From NCBI GenBank assembly GCA_944390915.1, contig CALXRS010000004.1, forward strand, positions 269 through 64,268: DNA of 64,000 nt. Reading direction: 5' to 3'. Source of the DNA: an uncultured Alphaproteobacteria bacterium (lineage in GTDB: Bacteria; Pseudomonadota; Alphaproteobacteria; RF32; CAG-239). The position numbers and the translations under genes are program-made. Shown here piece by piece: positions 32,265-43,350 of this stretch (positions are counted from its first letter, which is position 1; every line of letters starts with the position of its first letter). The notes beneath the pieces are model-generated. The model was not told where the DNA came from and searched no databases. It was given only the letters and a program-made list of their open reading frames with translations.

Positions 32265-34034
32265 TCAGCGTTTATAAGTCGACCGCGGCACATAATGCGT
32301 GTGCAGCAGATGATGCGCTTTTTCGCCGTTCGGCTCGCCGATATATTCGTCGTAGAGCATCTTGATGGATTGATTGTGATGCGAGAGCCTGTTTTGGGAG
32401 CGCAGATCCTCGTCAAACAAGCCTTTGGCGCGTTTGCGGCGGATGTCGTCGGTAATGCCGCGCGGTTTCGGCTGTCCCGGCAACATCACCCGCGGCTGTC
32501 CGCCGCCGGCAATGCAACCGCCCCGGCAGGCCATGACTTCCACAAAGTGATAAGGCAGCTCTTCGCCGGCCTCCTGCGCCGCGCGAAGCCGCGCCAGAAC
32601 TTTTTCGACATTGCCGGTGCCGTGCGCAACGGCAATGCGAATCGTTTTGCCGGCAATGACGACTTCCGCTTCCTTAATGCCGTCTAAGCCTTCGATGTCG
32701 CGGAAATTAAGCTCGCCGAGTTCGTTGCCGGTGATGTAAAAGTATGCCGTTCTCAACGCCGCCGTCATCACCCCGCCGGTGGTGCCGAAAATGGTGCCGG
32801 CGCCGGAATATTCGCCGAGCGGATTGTCGGCTTCTTCGTCCGGCAGGCTGCGAAAATCGATGCCCGCCTGTTTAATCATCCGCGCCAGTTCGCGCGTGGT
32901 CAGCGACACATCTACGTCCTGAAAACCCGATGAATGCATGTCCTCGCTGCGGACAATCTCCCATTTTTTGGCTGTGCAGGGCATGATGGAAATGACGCGG
33001 ATTTTGGCCGGATCTATCCCCGCCTTGTCGGCGTAATAGGTTTTGGCCAGGGCGCCGACCATTGATTGCGGCGATTTGCAGGTGGAGAAATGTTTTATCA
33101 TATCCTGATGATATTTTTCGAGCAAATCGACCCATGCCGGGCAGCAGCTGGTAAACATCGGCAGACTTTCCGGCTCTTTGGTGAAGCGGCGGACAAATTC
33201 GGTGGCTTCTTCAATAATCGTGAGGTCGGCGCCGAAATTGGTGTCGAATACCCGCTTAAAGCCCATCCGCCGCAAAGCCGCGTAGGTTTTGCCGGTCAGG
33301 TTTTCGCCAAAGTCAAAACCGAACTCTTCGCCGATGGCAACCCGAACGGCCGGTGCAATCTGCACAATGGTATAAATATCTTTGTCGTTCAGCATGTCCC
33401 AGACTTTTTGCGTTTCGTCATATTCGACAATCGCGCCGGTCGGGCAGTGGGCGGAACATTGTCCGCATTTGATGCAGGGGCTGTCGGCCAGATTGATGCC
33501 GTTGGCAGCGGTTATTCTGGTGGCCAGGCCGCGGTTTAAGTAACCCAAAGCCCACACGTTCTGTTGGTTTTGGCAAACTTCCACACAGCGCCCGCAAAGA
33601 ATGCATTTGCTGGCGTCGAGCACCAGCGCCTTGGTCGAATCGTCAATCGGCCAGCGTTTAGTGAGGTTTGGCAGCGGCGCGTCTTTGATGCCGAAAGTGT
33701 TGGCCAGATCCTGAAGCTCACAGTGTCCGGAGCGGATGCAGGTGAGACAGGCGTTCGGGTGGTTGCTTAAAATCAGTTTTAAGACTGTGCGCCGCACGTC
33801 GACCAGTTCGGCGTCCGAGGTAATGACTTCCATGCCTTCGGCTACCGGCGTGCAACAGGAACGCATTATTCGCCCGTTGACTTTGACAATGCAGATGCCG
33901 CAGCCGGCGGTGGCGTCAACATCAGGGTGTTTGCACAAGGTGGGAATTTCGATATGGACGCTGCGGGCGGCCTCCAGAATGGTGGTGCCGGCGGTGACTT
34001 CCACGTCGTAATTGTCTATTTTCAGCTTAACCAT
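32265..34034 (-). CDS. hydA: [FeFe]-hydrogenase catalytic subunit, group A3-type (HydA/HndD)
   Basis: H-cluster motifs TSCCPAW, MPCTAKKWE, EVMACRGGCIAGGGQP; N-terminal 2Fe-2S, His-ligated 4Fe-4S (HPNACLTC) and two 4Fe-4S motifs. Confidence 0.95.
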   Translation of the reverse strand: MVKLKIDNYDVEVTAGTTILEAARSVHIEIPTLCKHPDVDATAGCGICIVKVNGRIMRSCCTPVAEGMEVITSDAELVDVRRTVLKLILSNHPNACLTCIRSGHCELQDLANTFGIKDAPLPNLTKRWPIDDSTKALVLDASKCILCGRCVEVCQNQQNVWALGYLNRGLATRITAANGINLADSPCIKCGQCSAHCPTGAIVEYDETQKVWDMLNDKDIYTIVQIAPAVRVAIGEEFGFDFGENLTGKTYAALRRMGFKRVFDTNFGADLTIIEEATEFVRRFTKEPESLPMFTSCCPAWVDLLEKYHQDMIKHFSTCKSPQSMVGALAKTYYADKAGIDPAKIRVISIMPCTAKKWEIVRSEDMHSSGFQDVDVSLTTRELARMIKQAGIDFRSLPDEEADNPLGEYSGAGTIFGTTGGVMTAALRTAYFYITGNELGELNFRDIEGLDGIKEAEVVIAGKTIRIAVAHGTGNVEKVLARLRAAQEAGEELPYHFVEVMACRGGCIAGGGQPRVMLPGQPKPRGITDDIRRKRAKGLFDEDLRSQNRLSHHNQSIKMLYDEYIGEPNGEKAHHLLHTHYVPRSTYKR

Positions 34035-35731
34035 TAGTTTGCCTCCCTGTTGTTTGCTTCGTTTGCGGCAACTTTTGCCTCATATTCTTCGCCAAAATAG
34101 CGCAAGGTGGAAAGAACCGGGTTCGGCGCCGTTTGTCCCAGCCCGCAAAGCGAGGCCTTTTGCATGGCAACGGCCACTTTTTTCAGCAGTTCCAGATCTT
34201 TTTTCGTACCTTTGCCTTTGGCTATTTTTTCCAGGAGCAGCAGCATCTGCTTGCCGCCGATACGGCAGGGGGCGCATTTGCCGCAGGATTCGTCAACCGT
34301 AAAGTCGAGGTAGAATTTGGCAATGTCGACCATGTCGGCGGTTTCGTCCATGACAATCATGCCGCCGGAGCCCATAATCGAGCCGACTTTTTTCAGTTCT
34401 TCGTAGCATACCGGCAAATCGATGTCCACGGCCGGAATAACGCCGCCCGAGGGGCCGCCGGTCTGGACGGCTTTCAGTTTTTTGCCGTTCGGCACGCCGC
34501 CGCCGATTTCGTTGACGATGGTGTCGATGGTGGTGCCCATCGGCACTTCTATCAGTCCGGAGTGTTCAACCTGTCCGGTTAAGGCAAAAACTTTGGTGCC
34601 TTTCGACGTCGCCGTTCCGAAAGAAGAAAACCAGTCGGCGCCTTTTAAGATAATCGAGGGCACGTTGGCCAAAGTTTCCACATTGTTGATGCAGCTCGGC
34701 TTGTCCCACAGTCCCACTTCCGTCGGGTAGGGCGGCCGCGGCCGCGGAGTGCCGCGCTTGCCTTCGATCGAGTGGATAAGCGCCGTTTCTTCGCCGCAGA
34801 CGAAAGCGCCCGCGCCGAGGCGGATGTCGATGTTGAAATTGAAGCCGCTGTTCATGATGTTGTTGCCGAGCAGGCGCGTTTTTTTGCAGGCTTTGATGGC
34901 TTTTTCGATGCGTTCGACGGCCAGCGGATATTCCGCCCGGATATAAAACCAGCCTTCCGTCGCGCCGATGGCGTAGGCGGCAATCATCATGCCTTCGATA
35001 ACGTCATGCGGGTTGGATTCCAAAATGCTTCGATCCATATAGGCGCCGGGGTCGCCTTCGTCGCCGTTGCAGATGATGAATTTGTCGTCCACCACCGGCA
35101 CTTTGGCGGCCAGTTCCCATTTCAGTCCGGTCGGGAAACCGGCGCCGCCGCGACCGCGCAGACCGGATTTTTTGATTTCGGCGGCCACTTCGGCGGGGGT
35201 CATGGTTTTTAAGGCTTTTTCCAAAGCCAGATAGCCGCCGCGGGCGATATATTCCTGAATGTCCTCGGGGTCGAGGTGTCCGGCCTGCTTTAACACCACT
35301 TTTTCCTGTTTGGTGAAGAACGGCAGGTCAAGCGACAGAACATATTTGTTTAAGAATTCCGGCAGTTCGAAAGTTTCTCCTTCTTCCAGCTTGAGGGCGG
35401 GAATGACGTGTTCGCTGATGATAATGCGCGCCACCAAAGGTTCCAGCCGTTTGTAGAGCACGTCTTTCTGTCCTTTTATTTCCACTCTGACCAGAGGTCC
35501 CTGAGCGCACAGTCCCATGCAGCCGGTGGCGACGATGCGCACCTTGCCTTCCAGTCCGTGTTCGGCCACCGCCGATTTCATCAGCTCGAGGATGTCGTCG
35601 CTGCCCGAAGATTTGCAGCCGGTGGAGTGGCAGCAGTAGATGGTGCAGGCATAGCGGTCGATGTCGGCCATTTTGTTTTTGGCAATTTCGTGAATGTCAA
35701 ATCTTTTATCAATTTCGTTCATATCAGCCAT
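34034..35731 (-). CDS. hydB: NADH/FMN-binding NuoF-like hydrogenase subunit (HydB/HndC), lacking the C-terminal ferredoxin domain
   Basis: LRGRGGAGFPTG, CNGDEGDPGAYMDR, GAGAFVCGEETAL, QTGGPSGG, ESCGKCAPCR. Confidence 0.9.
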   Translation of the reverse strand: MADMNEIDKRFDIHEIAKNKMADIDRYACTIYCCHSTGCKSSGSDDILELMKSAVAEHGLEGKVRIVATGCMGLCAQGPLVRVEIKGQKDVLYKRLEPLVARIIISEHVIPALKLEEGETFELPEFLNKYVLSLDLPFFTKQEKVVLKQAGHLDPEDIQEYIARGGYLALEKALKTMTPAEVAAEIKKSGLRGRGGAGFPTGLKWELAAKVPVVDDKFIICNGDEGDPGAYMDRSILESNPHDVIEGMMIAAYAIGATEGWFYIRAEYPLAVERIEKAIKACKKTRLLGNNIMNSGFNFNIDIRLGAGAFVCGEETALIHSIEGKRGTPRPRPPYPTEVGLWDKPSCINNVETLANVPSIILKGADWFSSFGTATSKGTKVFALTGQVEHSGLIEVPMGTTIDTIVNEIGGGVPNGKKLKAVQTGGPSGGVIPAVDIDLPVCYEELKKVGSIMGSGGMIVMDETADMVDIAKFYLDFTVDESCGKCAPCRIGGKQMLLLLEKIAKGKGTKKDLELLKKVAVAMQKASLCGLGQTAPNPVLSTLRYFGEEYEAKVAANEANNREAN

Positions 35732-36218
35732 GGGAGAGCTCCTTGTCTTCGTCGTCAAATTTTTTGCGCCATTCGTCGATAATGTTGCGGACGTCGCCGA
35801 CGCTTACCCGGCCATAGGTCTTGCCGTTGACCACACAGACCGGCGCCAGCCCGCAGCAGCCGACACAGCGGACGCATTGCAGGTGGAACATGCGGTCGGG
35901 CGTGCTTTCGCCTTCACCGATGCCCAATTCTTTTTTGAACTCTTCCAGCACCTTGTCATTGCCTTTCAGGTAGCAGGCCGTGCCGGTGCACACGGAAATG
36001 ACCGCCTTGCCGGGCGCGTCCAGTTTGAAAAAGTTGTAAAAGGTAAGAACTTCGTAGATACGCGCCAGCGGGATGTTCATAACCTGCGCGACCTCCAGCG
36101 CGTCTTCCCACGGTACGTAGCCCTTAACATCCTGAATTTCGTGGAGGGCCATAATCAGCGCTCCTCTCTTTTTGCGCCATTTGGCGGCTACCTGTGTTGC
36201 AACCGAAGTGTCGCCCAT
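35724..36218 (-). CDS. hydC: NuoE-like 2Fe-2S hydrogenase subunit (HydC/HndA)
   Basis: VCTGTACYLKG and CVGCCGLAPV motifs. Confidence 0.92.
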   Translation of the reverse strand: MGDTSVATQVAAKWRKKRGALIMALHEIQDVKGYVPWEDALEVAQVMNIPLARIYEVLTFYNFFKLDAPGKAVISVCTGTACYLKGNDKVLEEFKKELGIGEGESTPDRMFHLQCVRCVGCCGLAPVCVVNGKTYGRVSVGDVRNIIDEWRKKFDDEDKELSHG

Positions 36219-39243: not shown

Positions 39244-40290
39244 ATGGAAAAATGTTTTGTTTTGCTGCGGGCATATAATGTTGAACAATATATAAAAAAA
39301 GCAATAGATTCGGTTTTGAAGCAAGATTATCCGAATGTAGAACTGCTTGTTCTCGATGACGGCTCGACGGACAGAACGGCGGAGATCGTTTGCGGTTACG
39401 ATAATCCGAAAATACGTTATACCCGCTGCGAAAACAAAGGACCGGCCGGTGCTTTCCGCGTTATTGCGGCGGAAACTCTCCGGCGCGCCGATAAAAACGA
39501 CTACATTTTTTCTTTGGACGGCGACGATTTTTATACCAGAGAAGACGCTCTTTCCGGTACCGTTAAAAGAATGAAGGCGCTTGATGCCAACTTGTGCATT
39601 ATCGGCATGGAATTCAGCGGCGATAAGAACTTTGTGTTGCAACCGAATGCCGGTAAGAAGCATAATGATACGGTGAAAAAGCTGGCCGCCAGAAATCGGG
39701 CGGAAAACATTATGACGGCACCGTTCATAATTGACGCCGACACCGCCTTGTGCAGCAAAGTATATCGCCGGGATATGTTTGCAAAATATATCAATCTGCT
39801 GCCGGAGTTTGCGCCGGATTTGAAAGTTTGCGAAGATTTTCCGACAACGGTTGCGCTGTTGATGAAAGATGCTCGGGTAACCGCCAATCCGGATATTTTT
39901 TACGGCTATTACAAACACGGCGGCAGCGTTACCTCCAAGCCGAAAGTGGCCGATTTCGAGCGGGACAGAATCCAGTTTTTGAAAATAACGCAACAGCTTG
40001 TTGCGCAGAATCCGCAAGAGTTTTTTGCGGTTGCTCCCTGCTTTGTCAACAAGTTCATCAGAGCAAAGTATGAGATTATCTCGGGTATTGTCGACAATAA
40101 GGTCAAAAACGGCGCTTTGCCGGCCGACTACAGCAAAAAACAGTTTCAGGAGACATTCCGTCGCGAGATAAATCTTGATTTTCTGAAATCGACCGAGACG
40201 GAAAAGACGGCAGACGACCAGCCGGTCAATCGGGCGGATCAAAAGACTTTGCCGTCGAAAATGGCAACCTCCGGCAGGGAGCCGTATTAA
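39244..40290 (+). CDS. Family 2 glycosyltransferase
   Basis: AYNVEQYI, DDGSTD, LDGDD, ED motif. Confidence 0.9.
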   Translation: MEKCFVLLRAYNVEQYIKKAIDSVLKQDYPNVELLVLDDGSTDRTAEIVCGYDNPKIRYTRCENKGPAGAFRVIAAETLRRADKNDYIFSLDGDDFYTREDALSGTVKRMKALDANLCIIGMEFSGDKNFVLQPNAGKKHNDTVKKLAARNRAENIMTAPFIIDADTALCSKVYRRDMFAKYINLLPEFAPDLKVCEDFPTTVALLMKDARVTANPDIFYGYYKHGGSVTSKPKVADFERDRIQFLKITQQLVAQNPQEFFAVAPCFVNKFIRAKYEIISGIVDNKVKNGALPADYSKKQFQETFRREINLDFLKSTETEKTADDQPVNRADQKTLPSKMATSGREPY

Positions 40291-40294
40291 AAAC

Positions 40295-40939
40295 TTAGAA
40301 CAACGATTTGTCGGCCAGCGAGTAATAGCGCTTGCGGATGCATTCCAGACAGGTTTTGTGCACGCCTTTGGTCAGTTCGTAAATGATAAAACGGCCGTCG
40401 CGGCGGGCGGTGACAAAGCCGTCGTCGCGCAGACGTTTCAGGTATTGCGAAACCTTGACCTGTTCGCCGTCGATGCCGGCAATGATGTCGCCGACGTTTT
40501 GCGGGCCGTTTATAAGCAGATATTCCAAGATACGCATTTTGTCGTAGTTGGCAAAGAGCTTGATACGGTTGGCCGTCATCATCGTGTAGTCGGCGGGCAG
40601 CAGCGCTTTGCAGCCTTCGCGCAGATATTTGAAGTCGTCGGTCATATAGCCGTAAAGCTTGCGCAGGCACACAAAAATACTTGCCGGATATTCTTCGCAG
40701 ATTTCGTAATAGATAAAGATTCCCCGGCGGACGGTTTTGACCAGATTGGCATCGCGCATTTTGCGCAGGCTTTGCGACACCATAACCTGTTCCGCGCCGA
40801 GGGCTTTGGTAATGGCGGAAACGGAAGCGCTGCCGTTGACATCCAGATATTCCAGAATATGCAGTCGGAGCGGATGGGCAATGTATGAAATGCCGCGGAC
40901 GGCTTTTTTCATGACTTCGACGGGGAGTTGCTGTTCCAT
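40295..40939 (-). CDS. Tandem two-domain ArsR/SmtB family regulator
   Basis: Two wHTH copies: HPLRLHILEYL..VSQSLRKMRDANLVKTVRRGIFIYY and DKMRILEYL..VSQYLKRLRDDGFVTARRDGRFIIY. Confidence 0.9.
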   Translation of the reverse strand: MEQQLPVEVMKKAVRGISYIAHPLRLHILEYLDVNGSASVSAITKALGAEQVMVSQSLRKMRDANLVKTVRRGIFIYYEICEEYPASIFVCLRKLYGYMTDDFKYLREGCKALLPADYTMMTANRIKLFANYDKMRILEYLLINGPQNVGDIIAGIDGEQVKVSQYLKRLRDDGFVTARRDGRFIIYELTKGVHKTCLECIRKRYYSLADKSLF

Positions 40940-41001
40940 GGCTTTGTTCCCGATAAAAAATACAAATTTCCGGCCGGAAAATTTTTATCCCGGCCGGGAG
41001 G

Positions 41002-41382
41002 TTATTTCAAATACGGCTGCACATATTCGTCAAACAGACGCGGGCTTTCTTTTTCCGACCAGCCCATCAGATATTTGTCGCCCATGCAGAAAAGCGGCGT
41101 GCCGACACTGCGGCCGAGCTCAAATTTTTCTGCGCACTTGACCAGCAGTTCATAGCCGCCGGGGTTGTGGATGTTAATTATCGCCATTTCCAGCGACGGG
41201 TATTTGGCGTTGATGTAGTCCATTGCCTGATGGCAGAAACGGCATTCGTTGTAGTAGAAAAAGTAGATTTTATTATCTGCCAGTTCTTCAGACGTCGGTT
41301 CGGCGGCGTCTGCCGCGGAACGGTTGTCGCAACCGGCGGTGAAAAAAGCGGCCAACAGCAGCAGGGCTAAAAATTTGCGCAT
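41002..41382 (-). CDS. Thioredoxin/glutaredoxin-like lipoprotein
   Basis: Lipobox FTAGC; FFYYNECRFCH (CxxC); GTP cis-Pro loop. Confidence 0.8.
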   Translation of the reverse strand: MRKFLALLLLAAFFTAGCDNRSAADAAEPTSEELADNKIYFFYYNECRFCHQAMDYINAKYPSLEMAIINIHNPGGYELLVKCAEKFELGRSVGTPLFCMGDKYLMGWSEKESPRLFDEYVQPYLK

Positions 41383-41395
41383 GTTCTTTTCTCCT

Positions 41396-42043
41396 TTATT
41401 CTATGCAGCAGTCTACGGCCTTGCGGACAAAAGCCTTCAGTTTGGCAAGGGTTGTTTTCGGCGCTTCCGCGTTATCTTCGTTTTCCGGAGTTTCCGCCGC
41501 CGCGTCCGCGCTTTTTTCCGCTTTGGCGTCGGTTGTTTTAACGTTGTCGGCCGCGCTCAGGCTCTCGGTCAGTTTTTTGACGTCGTCGTAGCTTTCTTCT
41601 ATCCATTTGACGTCTTCCAGATTGAGCAGTTTCATGTTTAAGCCCCAGAACAGGCAATAAAGTTCATAAGACTGGTCAAACAAATCGTAGGCTTCCTGCC
41701 GGTGGCCGAGGCTTTGTTGTTTGGTGCCCACTTCCATCAGCCGCATGGAGGCCGACAGCAGATGTTTGGAAATGCACCATACCTCGCCCTCGTATTCGGG
41801 AATAACTTTCTGCATCAGGCGTTTTCTGGTTTCGCGCACCTGTTCGATGAGGTCATAATAAGACGTTTTGCCGGTTTTGGCGCCGGAAAACATCAAATGT
41901 TCCTCTATCGAAATCAGGTTCATGATGCCGATGGTCAAATCCTGATCCGAAGACAGATCTTTGGGATTTACCTTTTTGGCGGAATCGATTTTTTCCACAT
42001 AATCTTTGACGTTTTTTATTTTTTTCATGGTCAAATTCTCCAT
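41396..42043 (-). CDS. Hypothetical helical protein with C-terminal CC motif
   Basis: NLISIEEH, GEVWCISKHLL, ends VDCCIE; co-oriented in operon. Confidence 0.8.
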   Translation of the reverse strand: MENLTMKKIKNVKDYVEKIDSAKKVNPKDLSSDQDLTIGIMNLISIEEHLMFSGAKTGKTSYYDLIEQVRETRKRLMQKVIPEYEGEVWCISKHLLSASMRLMEVGTKQQSLGHRQEAYDLFDQSYELYCLFWGLNMKLLNLEDVKWIEESYDDVKKLTESLSAADNVKTTDAKAEKSADAAAETPENEDNAEAPKTTLAKLKAFVRKAVDCCIE

Positions 42044-42051
42044 TTTGACGG

Positions 42052-42555
42052 TTACAGGGGGTAGTAGTTGACATAGGCGCTGGCAACGCCGAGCAAAACC
42101 AGCGGCAGCACGACTTTTTCAAACGGAAAATGGGCGTGCCCGCCGTTTTTTCTTTTCATCCATTGATAAAATTTTTGGGAGCAGACGAAAATGACGGCGC
42201 CGGCCAGGGCTGACAGCAAAAACGGATCGATGTATAAAAAGCCGATGATTTTCGGCATGTAAGGCAGCATGCCGAGATATACAAAACCTATCATGGCAAC
42301 GCTTGTTGCCACCAGCAGGAAATCGCGCCCCGGAAATTGCCAGTTCCTTTTTTCGAACCATGCTACCGCCCAATAGCCGAGGATGGCAAGCATGGCGCCG
42401 GCCCACAGGGCGACGACGTTGTCGCTGATGCCGAGCCGCCGGGATATTTCCAGCGAGGCGCCGATGGCCACCGTGCATACCACGCAGGCGGGGTTGGCCA
42501 AAGCGGCGAAAGGCAGGAACAGCAGCCCGAAAAATGAGAGTATTGCTTTTTTCAT
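42052..42555 (-). CDS. Hypothetical membrane protein with N-terminal CxxC
   Basis: Signal-like N-terminus ending AALA, then NPACVVC, then 4-5 TM segments. Confidence 0.8.
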   Translation of the reverse strand: MKKAILSFFGLLFLPFAALANPACVVCTVAIGASLEISRRLGISDNVVALWAGAMLAILGYWAVAWFEKRNWQFPGRDFLLVATSVAMIGFVYLGMLPYMPKIIGFLYIDPFLLSALAGAVIFVCSQKFYQWMKRKNGGHAHFPFEKVVLPLVLLGVASAYVNYYPL

Positions 42556-42570
42556 TATATGTACCTTTCA

Positions 42571-42622
42571 ATATATAACAATATTTATATATATGTATAT
42601 TGCTATATATTATTATTGTCAA
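42571..42622 (-). promoter_or_regulatory. Promoter overlapped by a double ArsR-like operator
   Basis: Minus-strand TTGACA at 42617-42622; quasi-palindrome 42571-42610 (atatataacaatat...atattgctatatat). Confidence 0.6.
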
Positions 42623-42720: not shown

Positions 42721-43350
42721 ATGAAAATTGTTATTTATATTGTGTTGGCGGCAGCGGTTGCCGCAGCGGCTGCCGGCTGGGGGCATCTGGCCAGAGTGGC
42801 CGCAAAAAACAAAAAAGAGATGGCGCAATATGCCGGCGAGGAGGAAAAAGTGACCGCCAACTTCGGCAAAACGCTGGTGATTTATTATTCGCTGACCGGA
42901 CACACCCGTGCAATTGCCGAAAAAATTGCCGTCAAAACAGGAGCGGATGTCTATGAAATAAAAACAAAAGAAAAGTTAAATGGCAAACCGTGGTTTTATC
43001 TTACTCTGAAAAAACAGTTGAAAGATAAAAAATATCCGGAGCTGGCCGGTTATATGCCCGATTTGTCCGTGTATGACACTGTTTTCGTCGGTGCCCCCGT
43101 ATGGTGGTATACAATGGCTACGCCGCTTTATGCCTTTTTACAGCAGGCCGATTTTGCCGGCAAAAAGGTTGTGCCGTTTTCCACTCAGGGCAGCAATGTC
43201 GGAACCTATTTTGACGATTTTGCCGGAGAAGCACACAATGCCGAGATTTTGCAAGGCGCGTCTTTCAACAATCTGCCGGCGGAATACGCGCGGGCGGAAG
43301 ACAATAAAGTCAGCCGCTGGCTTAATTCAATCGGCGGTGTTGCCGAATAA
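42721..43350 (+). CDS. Flavodoxin (flavodoxin_4 type) with N-terminal signal/anchor
   Basis: YYSLTGHTRAIA, VFVGAPVWW, PFSTQGS. Confidence 0.85.
   Translation: MKIVIYIVLAAAVAAAAAGWGHLARVAAKNKKEMAQYAGEEEKVTANFGKTLVIYYSLTGHTRAIAEKIAVKTGADVYEIKTKEKLNGKPWFYLTLKKQLKDKKYPELAGYMPDLSVYDTVFVGAPVWWYTMATPLYAFLQQADFAGKKVVPFSTQGSNVGTYFDDFAGEAHNAEILQGASFNNLPAEYARAEDNKVSRWLNSIGGVAE

Follow-up and report, generated by a model that had tools for sequence, protein, structure and literature searches.

The described systems closest to the one treated here are the DsbA-DsbB, DsbA-VKOR and MauD-MauE pairs and the CcdA/DsbD/ScsB proteins. DsbB has four catalytic cysteines, and VKOR depends on quinone. A 2026 preprint states that DsbB uses quinone and that MauE is predicted by docking to do so, and counts 4,169 species (20.1% of its set) without DsbB, VKOR or MauE, gaps that it calls open (10.64898/2026.03.05.709764). 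The present subject is a four-gene locus at positions 40,295 to 42,622 of a 64,000-nucleotide stretch, called the window below (positions 269 to 64,268 of contig CALXRS010000004.1, assembly GCA_944390915.1), from an uncultured alphaproteobacterium of the order RF32 whose genome is 1.54 Mb and 100% complete. At its core is a real and widespread module built on two unstudied families, a membrane protein with a CxxC motif, gene (i), and a soluble helical protein ending in a pair of cysteines, gene (ii). The module most likely works like a Dsb relay; that it is a quinone-independent oxidative relay, substituting for DsbB and ending in (ii) as a cytoplasmic enzyme, is put at an even chance. Word searches found no paper on quinone-independent bacterial disulfide formation or on such CxxC membrane proteins of Patescibacteria, although unnamed families escape searches of this kind, and the host lineage, by the names tried, is unmentioned in the accessible parts of PMC11707229 and PMC13386864.

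Two conserved families at the core of the module

The open reading frames of the locus all lie on the minus strand, with intergenic gaps of 8, 13 and 62 bp, and their coordinates confirm the co-oriented arrangement reported by the initial annotation, which had been made from the letters alone:

42052-42555, minus strand: gene (i), 167 amino acids, membrane CxxC protein of an unnamed family, module core
41396-42043, minus strand: gene (ii), 215 amino acids, soluble helical protein without signal peptide, of an unnamed family, module core
41002-41382, minus strand: gene (iii), 126 amino acids, predicted lipoprotein with a thioredoxin/glutaredoxin-like CxxC, frequent companion
40295-40939, minus strand: gene (iv), 214 amino acids, tandem two-domain ArsR/SmtB-family repressor, frequent companion

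Every motif that had been singled out (NPACVVC, HAHFPF, IEEH, WCISKH, DCCIE and CRFC) is found in the translations. The true start of (ii) is probably 42028, because its relatives begin at MKK.

Relatives of both core genes are numerous: 1239 of 2736 candidates for (i), and all 7999 of the 7999 scored for (ii), the latter forming 486 clusters at 50% identity. Gene (ii) is encoded by at least 594 of the 600 pattern matches listed in species genomes. With the host's own genome counted in each case, it is present in 143 of 151 genomes of the host order, in 13 of 301 of the host class (all of 0.9-2.3 Mb, from 6 families) and in 4 of 401 of the host phylum. The 80 closest (ii) loci, referred to below as gut loci, have titles that are mostly uncultured Alphaproteobacteria, Rhodospirillales and proteobacteria, many from animal gut, with two odd labels presumed misbinned. 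More distant members carry the source names Microgenomates, WWE3, Aenigmarchaeota and Nanoarchaeota, so that relatives suggested earlier from the candidate phyla radiation (CPR)/Patescibacteria do exist, and DPANN archaea join them. Viral contigs gave no match for (ii), and plasmids none for the module.

The genes had been expected to co-occur in other genomes, and they do. Of the gut loci, 47 have (i) near (ii), 38 have (iii) and 26 have (iv) (some of the last divergent). In 80 environmental loci, (i) stands directly upstream of (ii) in 69 and further off or partial in 2 more, 3 lack it despite room, and 6 contigs are too short; among the 69, 30 have a (iii) homolog immediately before (i). 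In alphaproteobacterial genomes with (ii), (i) is found in 32 of 32, even when unlinked. The core of the module is (i) plus (ii), with (iii) and (iv) as frequent companions; the four-gene unit proposed at the outset is not fixed, since all four genes stand together in 10 of the 80 gut loci.

All 119 aligned homologs of gene (i) keep both cysteines of the CxxC (C24/C27); no other cysteine is invariant, further loop cysteines occurring in a minority. Alanine at -1 (115 of 117) and a small residue at -3 make up a signal-peptidase-like site before the CxxC, and the mature chain is predicted to start N-P-x-C-x-x-C in gut forms and x-C-P-x-C elsewhere. The AlphaFold2 model of the mature protein (predicted local distance difference test, pLDDT, 88) has 5 helices, the CxxC beginning a short H1 that is followed by four full membrane helices. 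The H2-H3 and H4-H5 loops contain on average 4.1 and 4.0 lysines plus arginines, against 1.2-1.3 in the other two; this charge would place both loops inside, and H1 would therefore be re-entrant or peripheral.

The earlier statements that (i) and (ii) match no nameable family, and that (i) lies outside DsbB, DsbD/CcdA and VKOR, were upheld by profile. Neither (i) nor any of its 119 homologs matched the profiles of DsbB (PF02600), VKOR (PF07884), MauE (PF07291) or CcdA/DsbD (PF02683, PF13386); the second conserved Cys pair that DsbB has in a loop is missing, the CxxC is on the first helix and not, as in VKOR, on the last, it is not the CXC of MauE, and two separated Cys-Pro motifs as in CcdA/DsbD are absent. 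DUF2162 was weakly matched in 5 of the 119 (best E value 3e-4). For (i) and (ii) alike, there was no Pfam or NCBIfam match below E 0.04, no family common to either alignment and no PDB-sequence match, and the ESM Atlas gave only unnamed clusters. Fold searches with (i) (Foldseek, VIA) reached a best Z score of 6.8, none being 8 or higher, and DsbB, VKOR and CcdA are absent from their listings, an absence that does not exclude them. By the features tested, then, the module is not a member of DsbB, VKOR, MauE or CcdA/DsbD. A second (i) paralog, 61% identical and without (ii), lies in the same genome at C10:18704-19138 (minus strand); at this locus in relatives, (i) and (ii) precede a 1300-residue coiled-coil membrane protein.

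In gene (ii), four helices (27-136) are joined by a variable linker to an amphipathic helix that closes the chain with CC-x-E, and the AlphaFold2 model has a pLDDT of at least 90 over about residues 31-140. The conserved core is D29, D35, E47, E48, H49, R70, R73, E87, W89, C90, K93, H94, R101, E104 and K108, with EEH on helix 1, RxxR on helix 2, and CxxKH and RxxE on helix 3. The conservation of cysteines, which had been named as a check, exceeds what chance would give, here as in (i): all 80 environmental loci have W-C-x-x-K-H, and the CC tail occurs in every one of the 80 environmental and 80 gut loci. The tail is missing in 29 of 91 representatives, some of them chimeric or truncated. None of the contrary outcomes named in the initial annotation (no co-occurrence, unconserved cysteines, characterised families) was found.

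Two homologs (P0327, P0377) carry inteins of 389 and 397 amino acids directly before C90; both contain LAGLIDADG, and a non-replication protein is an unusual intein host. Inteins tend to cluster at active sites, according to PMC7360933. In tandem duplicates of (ii), the first copy retains H49, K56, E104 and K108 and loses E87, W89, C90, K93 and H94 (4 of 4), and the second has the reverse set together with the CC tail (4 of 4). Together with the inteins at Cys90, this split of the conserved residues is read as pointing to a single active site to which two chains contribute. The core and the CC tail sit on separate adjacent paralogs in two genomes (G843, G844), for which reason the CC arm can likely act in trans. 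With its many invariant charged and histidine residues, the inteins at C90 and the complementary splits in all four duplicates, (ii) looks more like an enzyme than a plain shuttle. Among its homologs, an N-terminal hydrophobic segment is seen in P0345, P0359, P0360, P0365, P0256 and P0258, in some cases alongside a Gly-Leu-Gly stretch and short tails rich in Cys, and degenerate paralogs without the catalytic-looking residues (P0350, P0368, P0384, P0385, L209:1905-2393) are possibly structural subunits. In genus relatives G001, G005, G010, G020 and G022, (ii) is cut at contig ends, in two near-identical copies, and is hidden from profile searches.

The fold of (ii) bears on an alternative, namely defence against peroxide or oxygen. 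Here (ii) would work in the cytoplasm as a peroxidase or oxidase that depends on thiols and is recycled by thioredoxin, while (i) and (iii) would extend protection to the envelope without a general folding role. Its fold-search rows are generic hairpins that include rubrerythrin, sulerythrin and encapsulated ferritin, and they are weak (Foldseek E 0.79); against ferritin-like folds, VIA gave Z 9.0 with a root-mean-square deviation (rmsd) of 4.8 over 62 aligned residues, and Z 7.6 with rmsd 6.7 over 112. Rubrerythrin, PerR or FprA genes neighbour 17 of the 80 gut loci (SulP, TerC and CorA occur in fewer), the module is restricted to non-respiring lineages, and forms of (ii) without the CC tail exist, all of which would suit such a role. 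The fold rows, however, do not rise above the noise expected of helical bundles, (ii) lacks the ExxH pattern of ferritins, and the retained DsbA would be left without an oxidant; this alternative is judged very improbable, and it overlaps the oxidative relay if peroxide is the terminal acceptor. Two more specific assignments were also tried: a canonical di-iron site (E...ExxH twice across four helices) is not present in (ii), and AhpD/CMD peroxidase features do not fit it, there being a single core cysteine and no Pfam match in 68 members.

DsbB and its partners in genomes with and without the module

In profile searches the host genome gave no match to DsbB, VKOR, MauE or the UbiA family. It encodes two ScsB/DsbD proteins with both Cys motifs, as well as DsbA-like CxxC proteins, so that the reductive branch is present and the oxidant missing. 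The comparison was extended to 52 alphaproteobacterial genomes, 32 with (ii) (22 of the host family, across genera, and all 10 of other families) and 20 listed without it. DsbB was found in 0 of the 32 and in 19 of the 20; UbiA-family matches were likewise 4, all weak, among the 32 and 19 among the 20. Thioredoxin_4/DsbA-type genes are retained in 32 of 32 (ii)-positive genomes, with CxHC intact in the 6 that were read, and DsbD is above the cut-off in 25 of 32, 6 of 32 having no DsbD_TM match. VKOR was absent in 5 of 5 further module-positive genomes searched, the MauE search being confined to the host genome.

A family of another class (f206), which from a reading of its genes is taken to be Gammaproteobacteria, has (ii) in 8 of 12 genomes, with the order thioredoxin-(i)-(ii) in the 7 loci printed. 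DsbB is matched in 11 of the 12, the eighth module-positive genome being the one without a match. The second cysteine of the CxxC and the first of the second pair are lost in 7 of 7 module-positive DsbBs, whereas all four cysteines are kept in 4 of 4 module-negative ones. The bd and COX1 heme-copper terminal oxidases follow the same division (0 of 3 positives, 2 of 2 negatives; five genomes tested), as do strong UbiA-family matches (4 of 4 negatives, 1 of 8 positives), and the DsbA CxxC is intact in the 3 module-positive genomes read. A strict exclusion of dsbB genes by the module was rejected, as f206 positives retain a crippled homolog. What is absent is functional DsbB, from every module-positive genome tested save one (G635), in which a (ii)-like gene occurs without (i) and an intact DsbB is kept. 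The distributions of the module and of functional DsbB are in this sense complementary. The seven divergent f206 DsbBs (L203, L223-L228) keep the first and last cysteine in a frame of full length, a hint that they retain a non-canonical role; a UbiA-like gene syntenic with waaA (L236:1417-2244, G846) has lost its Asp-rich motifs while its frame stays open. Within the host genome, even cysteine counts were found in 40 of 65 predicted exported proteins against 317 of 716 cytoplasmic ones (Fisher p 0.009), from gene calls and signal rules made for this analysis and tightened after a weaker first pass (77/141 vs 298/658).

On the strength of these genome comparisons, the oxidative, DsbB-replacing direction is now favoured for what the initial annotation had proposed as a trans-membrane thiol relay, which is the best-supported reading of the module. 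Thiols of exported proteins would pass electrons to DsbA or (iii), these to the CxxC of (i), and (i) to the cytoplasmic (ii), at whose own active site they would be discarded. Gene (i) would have four membrane helices, with its CxxC on an H1 that is re-entrant or peripheral. In (ii), the CC tail would serve as a swinging arm, and the site may be a composite one at a dimer interface, with H49/E104/K56/K108 from one chain and C90/H94/E87/K93 from the other, possibly binding metal. That O2 or H2O2, met in transient exposure, is the terminal acceptor is a guess made from the rubrerythrin, PerR and FprA neighbours. A fuller version, put forward tentatively and with somewhat less than even confidence, is a further route to protein disulfides that needs no quinone at all, with envelope electrons carried inward, opposite to the usual DsbD direction, to a new Cys/His/Glu enzyme discharging onto O2 or peroxide, in Patescibacteria, DPANN archaea and gut Proteobacteria, with at least two uptakes by Proteobacteria that gave up respiration.

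Several points weigh against an oxidative relay in the place of DsbB. The correlation has a confounder: a cell that stops respiring would lose DsbB function for that reason alone, and the pattern would be the same for any gene of non-respiring cells. The correlation amounts, moreover, to about two independent events, because the alphaproteobacterial (ii) form one clade (15 rows, Shimodaira-Hasegawa approximate likelihood ratio test 95, in a quick tree of 46 sampled rows with no root test) and the crippled f206 DsbBs form another (support 100/99). The DsbB comparison covers Proteobacteria, and many CPR genomes have VKOR, 750 of them together with an MdbA-like protein, as given in PMC6744442. 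One genome (G491) keeps a near-intact UbiA (E 1.3e-47), the cysteine-parity result comes from a tightened rule with no control genome, and a single CxxC would have to reach both sides of the membrane. In two of the three environmental loci lacking (i) (L136, L170), a CcdA-like DsbD_2 gene lies directly before (ii), which fits a reductive role. Finally, P0279 has a (iii)-type domain inserted between the core and tail of (ii) (E 1.9e-20; the domain matches PF00462) and no signal peptide, and P0264 has a classical thioredoxin fused to the N-terminus of (ii); these fusions put a thioredoxin-fold partner and (ii) in one compartment, and fit a reductive or peroxidase role.

Another alternative is a reductive, CcdA/DsbD-like relay, in which electrons would run from cytoplasmic thioredoxin to the CC arm of (ii), to (i) and to (iii), repairing or protecting envelope thiols under ArsR-sensed stress. 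The thioredoxin-fold fusions and the CcdA-like genes before (ii) speak for such a relay, as do the 6 of 32 module-positive alphaproteobacteria without a DsbD_TM match and the stress-type regulation by a Cys-bearing ArsR. It is nevertheless considered rather unlikely, given that DsbD/ScsB is kept in 25 of 32 module-positive genomes (in two copies in the host), that functional DsbB is missing from all module-positive genomes tested except the (ii)-only G635, that a pure shuttle needs no large invariant set of Glu, His, Cys, Arg and Lys as in (ii), and that CPHC dominates in (iii).

Companion genes, regulation and neighbourhood

CPHC is the oxidising DsbA motif. It is found in 29 of 31 environmental and 20 of 38 gut copies of (iii), the family form being CPHC/CPYC, and its frequency there counts in favour of the oxidative relay. 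In the window protein, (iii) has a predicted lipobox (LAAFFTAG-C18), CRFC as its CxxC, a G-T/V-P motif and an extra Cys pair; it has no significant Pfam or NCBIfam match and matches the profile of its environmental homologs at E 1.2e-6. The thioredoxin fold ascribed to this lipoprotein at the outset thus agrees with the CxxC and the G-[VT]-P (cis-Pro loop motif) of the homologs, while CRFC proved atypical and not the family motif. Another predicted exported protein of the host genome, at C10:49112-49576 (plus strand), has a thioredoxin-like CPSC and is not matched by the (iii) profile.

Gene (iv) matches NF033788 over 2 stretches (112 bits, cut-off 55) and belongs to HTH_5/ArsR, in agreement with the two fused ArsR domains first described. 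Each domain has a cysteine in its last helix (C91 and C200); both are conserved in all 25 homologs, and (iv) likely senses an oxidant or metal through them. Persulfide sensing of the BigR/SqrR type was discarded, since (iv) has no alpha-2 cysteine and scores 66.8 bits against NF040642 (cut-off 155). The elements around the operon are as follows:

42571-42610, strand not applicable: predicted operator of (iv), two overlapping ATAYAT-N12-ATRTAT inverted repeats (42571-42594 and 42587-42610)
42622-42617, minus strand: -35 element TTGACA, just upstream of the operator repeats
40970-40997, minus strand: GC-rich hairpin of 10 pairs with a T-rich tail, between (iii) and (iv)
42721-43350, plus strand: divergent flavodoxin with an N-terminal hydrophobic segment (PF12682, E 1.7e-24)

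Of the 26 loci with (iv), 23 have the palindrome upstream at 11-12 of 12 positions and 14 have it at 12 of 12; of the 53 loci that lack (iv), the corresponding numbers are 13 and 1. The two best operator scores genome-wide are the sites at 42571-42610 (23.2 and 21.7; next 14.5); as related loci supplied the matrix and the AT content is high here, the operator is a prediction. Gene (iv) likely represses its own operon through these two predicted sites, and the hairpin may lower read-through into (iv), a consensus scan for hairpins with T-rich tails giving 9 such sites against 5.8 expected in shuffles. The original description of an undescribed thiol module under ArsR control is supported.

A regulator of the ArsR family would also suit the handling of soft metals or metalloids (Cu(I), Zn, As(III)): the ion would be chaperoned by the CC tail of (ii), bound or exported by the N-terminal amine and CxxC of (i), and sensed by the ArsR. 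Vicinal Cys pairs occur in ArsD and MerA, H49/E104/C90/H94 of (ii) could ligate metal, and ars or metal genes (ArsP, ArsR, DsbD_2, heavy-metal ATPase, ZIP, CDF, DUF411) lie in 18 of 80 environmental loci. Of the soft-metal/persulfide system first suggested, the metal part is for that reason a live rival. Even so, metal handling appears improbable. Gene (ii) is near-universal in the host order (143 of 151), which fits housekeeping over resistance, the module has no match among plasmids, oxygen-defence genes are commoner beside gut loci (17 of 80) than SulP, TerC and CorA, and the DsbB pattern is left unexplained. The histidines of HAHFPF in (i) are not conserved, environmental homologs having mostly Lys, Ala or Tyr there, and a metal site at this motif was rejected.

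The flavodoxin is divergent and has its intergenic region in common with the operon, as first noted; with a presence in 4 of 80 gut loci it is no more than a local neighbour, and was dismissed as a module component. On the other side, a family-2 glycosyltransferase (window 39244-40290, plus strand) converges on (iv) with a 4-bp gap, and also adjoins the operon in L004. At C19:4039-4153 of the host genome, 115 bp repeat the 3' end of (iv) at 94% identity beside an alpha/beta-hydrolase gene that flanks the operon in relatives L002 and L018, a trace of recent rearrangement. Further off (window 32265-36218, minus strand) is a three-subunit NAD-linked [FeFe]-hydrogenase-like operon, which fits a fermentative anaerobe and whose subunits are, by motif, of NuoE, NuoF and H-cluster type. 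RNA contigs (4 libraries, 3 studies) overlap parts of each of the four genes and of the flavodoxin, but no part of the glycosyltransferase; as the runs were selected via this stretch and the contigs are uninformative on level, strand or a single transcript, they are given no weight.

Relation to described thiol systems

The module names two testable genes for part of the DsbB/VKOR/MauE gap, both in gut bacteria that ferment and in bacteria and archaea of ultra-small size without respiration. An oxidative relay of this kind, if true, would offer a respiration-free tool for oxidative folding; should the flow be reductive instead, the module would still be a new trans-membrane thiol relay from two unstudied families, found at no fewer than 594 places in species genomes.

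C-terminal swinging dithiol arms are found in MerA (a CC tail), Erv2p (a CxC tail) and MsrA. Gene (ii) resembles them in a flexible linker ending in vicinal cysteines that could serve the site of a neighbouring subunit, and differs in having one conserved core Cys, no sequence or fold match and no recognised flavin-binding signature. With rubrerythrin, sulerythrin and encapsulated ferritin it shares two helical hairpins, a likely oligomeric state and conserved Glu/His, whereas the match (Z 9.0, rmsd 4.8) extends over one hairpin only and is tied with coiled coils, and helices 2 and 4 have no ExxH, with conserved Cys, Arg and Lys instead. Gene (iv) is like ArsR/SmtB (NF033788) repressors, including BigR/SqrR, in its winged-helix domains, its palindromic operator over the promoter and its last-helix Cys; unlike ArsR/SmtB it has two domains fused in one chain, and unlike BigR/SqrR it has no alpha-2 Cys.

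In summary, the module has in common with CcdA/DsbD/ScsB a cytoplasmic dithiol, a membrane Cys pair and an exported thioredoxin-like protein, but it has a CxxC pair rather than two separated Cys-Pro motifs, has no profile match, stands in hosts most of which keep ScsB besides, and uses a helical cytoplasmic partner with its own conserved site in place of a thioredoxin. With DsbA-DsbB, DsbA-VKOR and MauD-MauE it shares a small membrane protein, of some four helices, in which a Cys pair opens a helix, and an exported CPHC thioredoxin-fold partner. It departs from DsbB, VKOR and MauE in having a single conserved Cys pair, placed where the mature chain would begin after the predicted cleavage of a signal peptide, in hosts that mostly have no quinone prenyltransferases, and in the cytoplasmic partner (ii), which has no counterpart there; with DsbB and VKOR it has neither a profile match nor a fold row, and in two proteobacterial lineages it fills the genomic gap left by DsbB.

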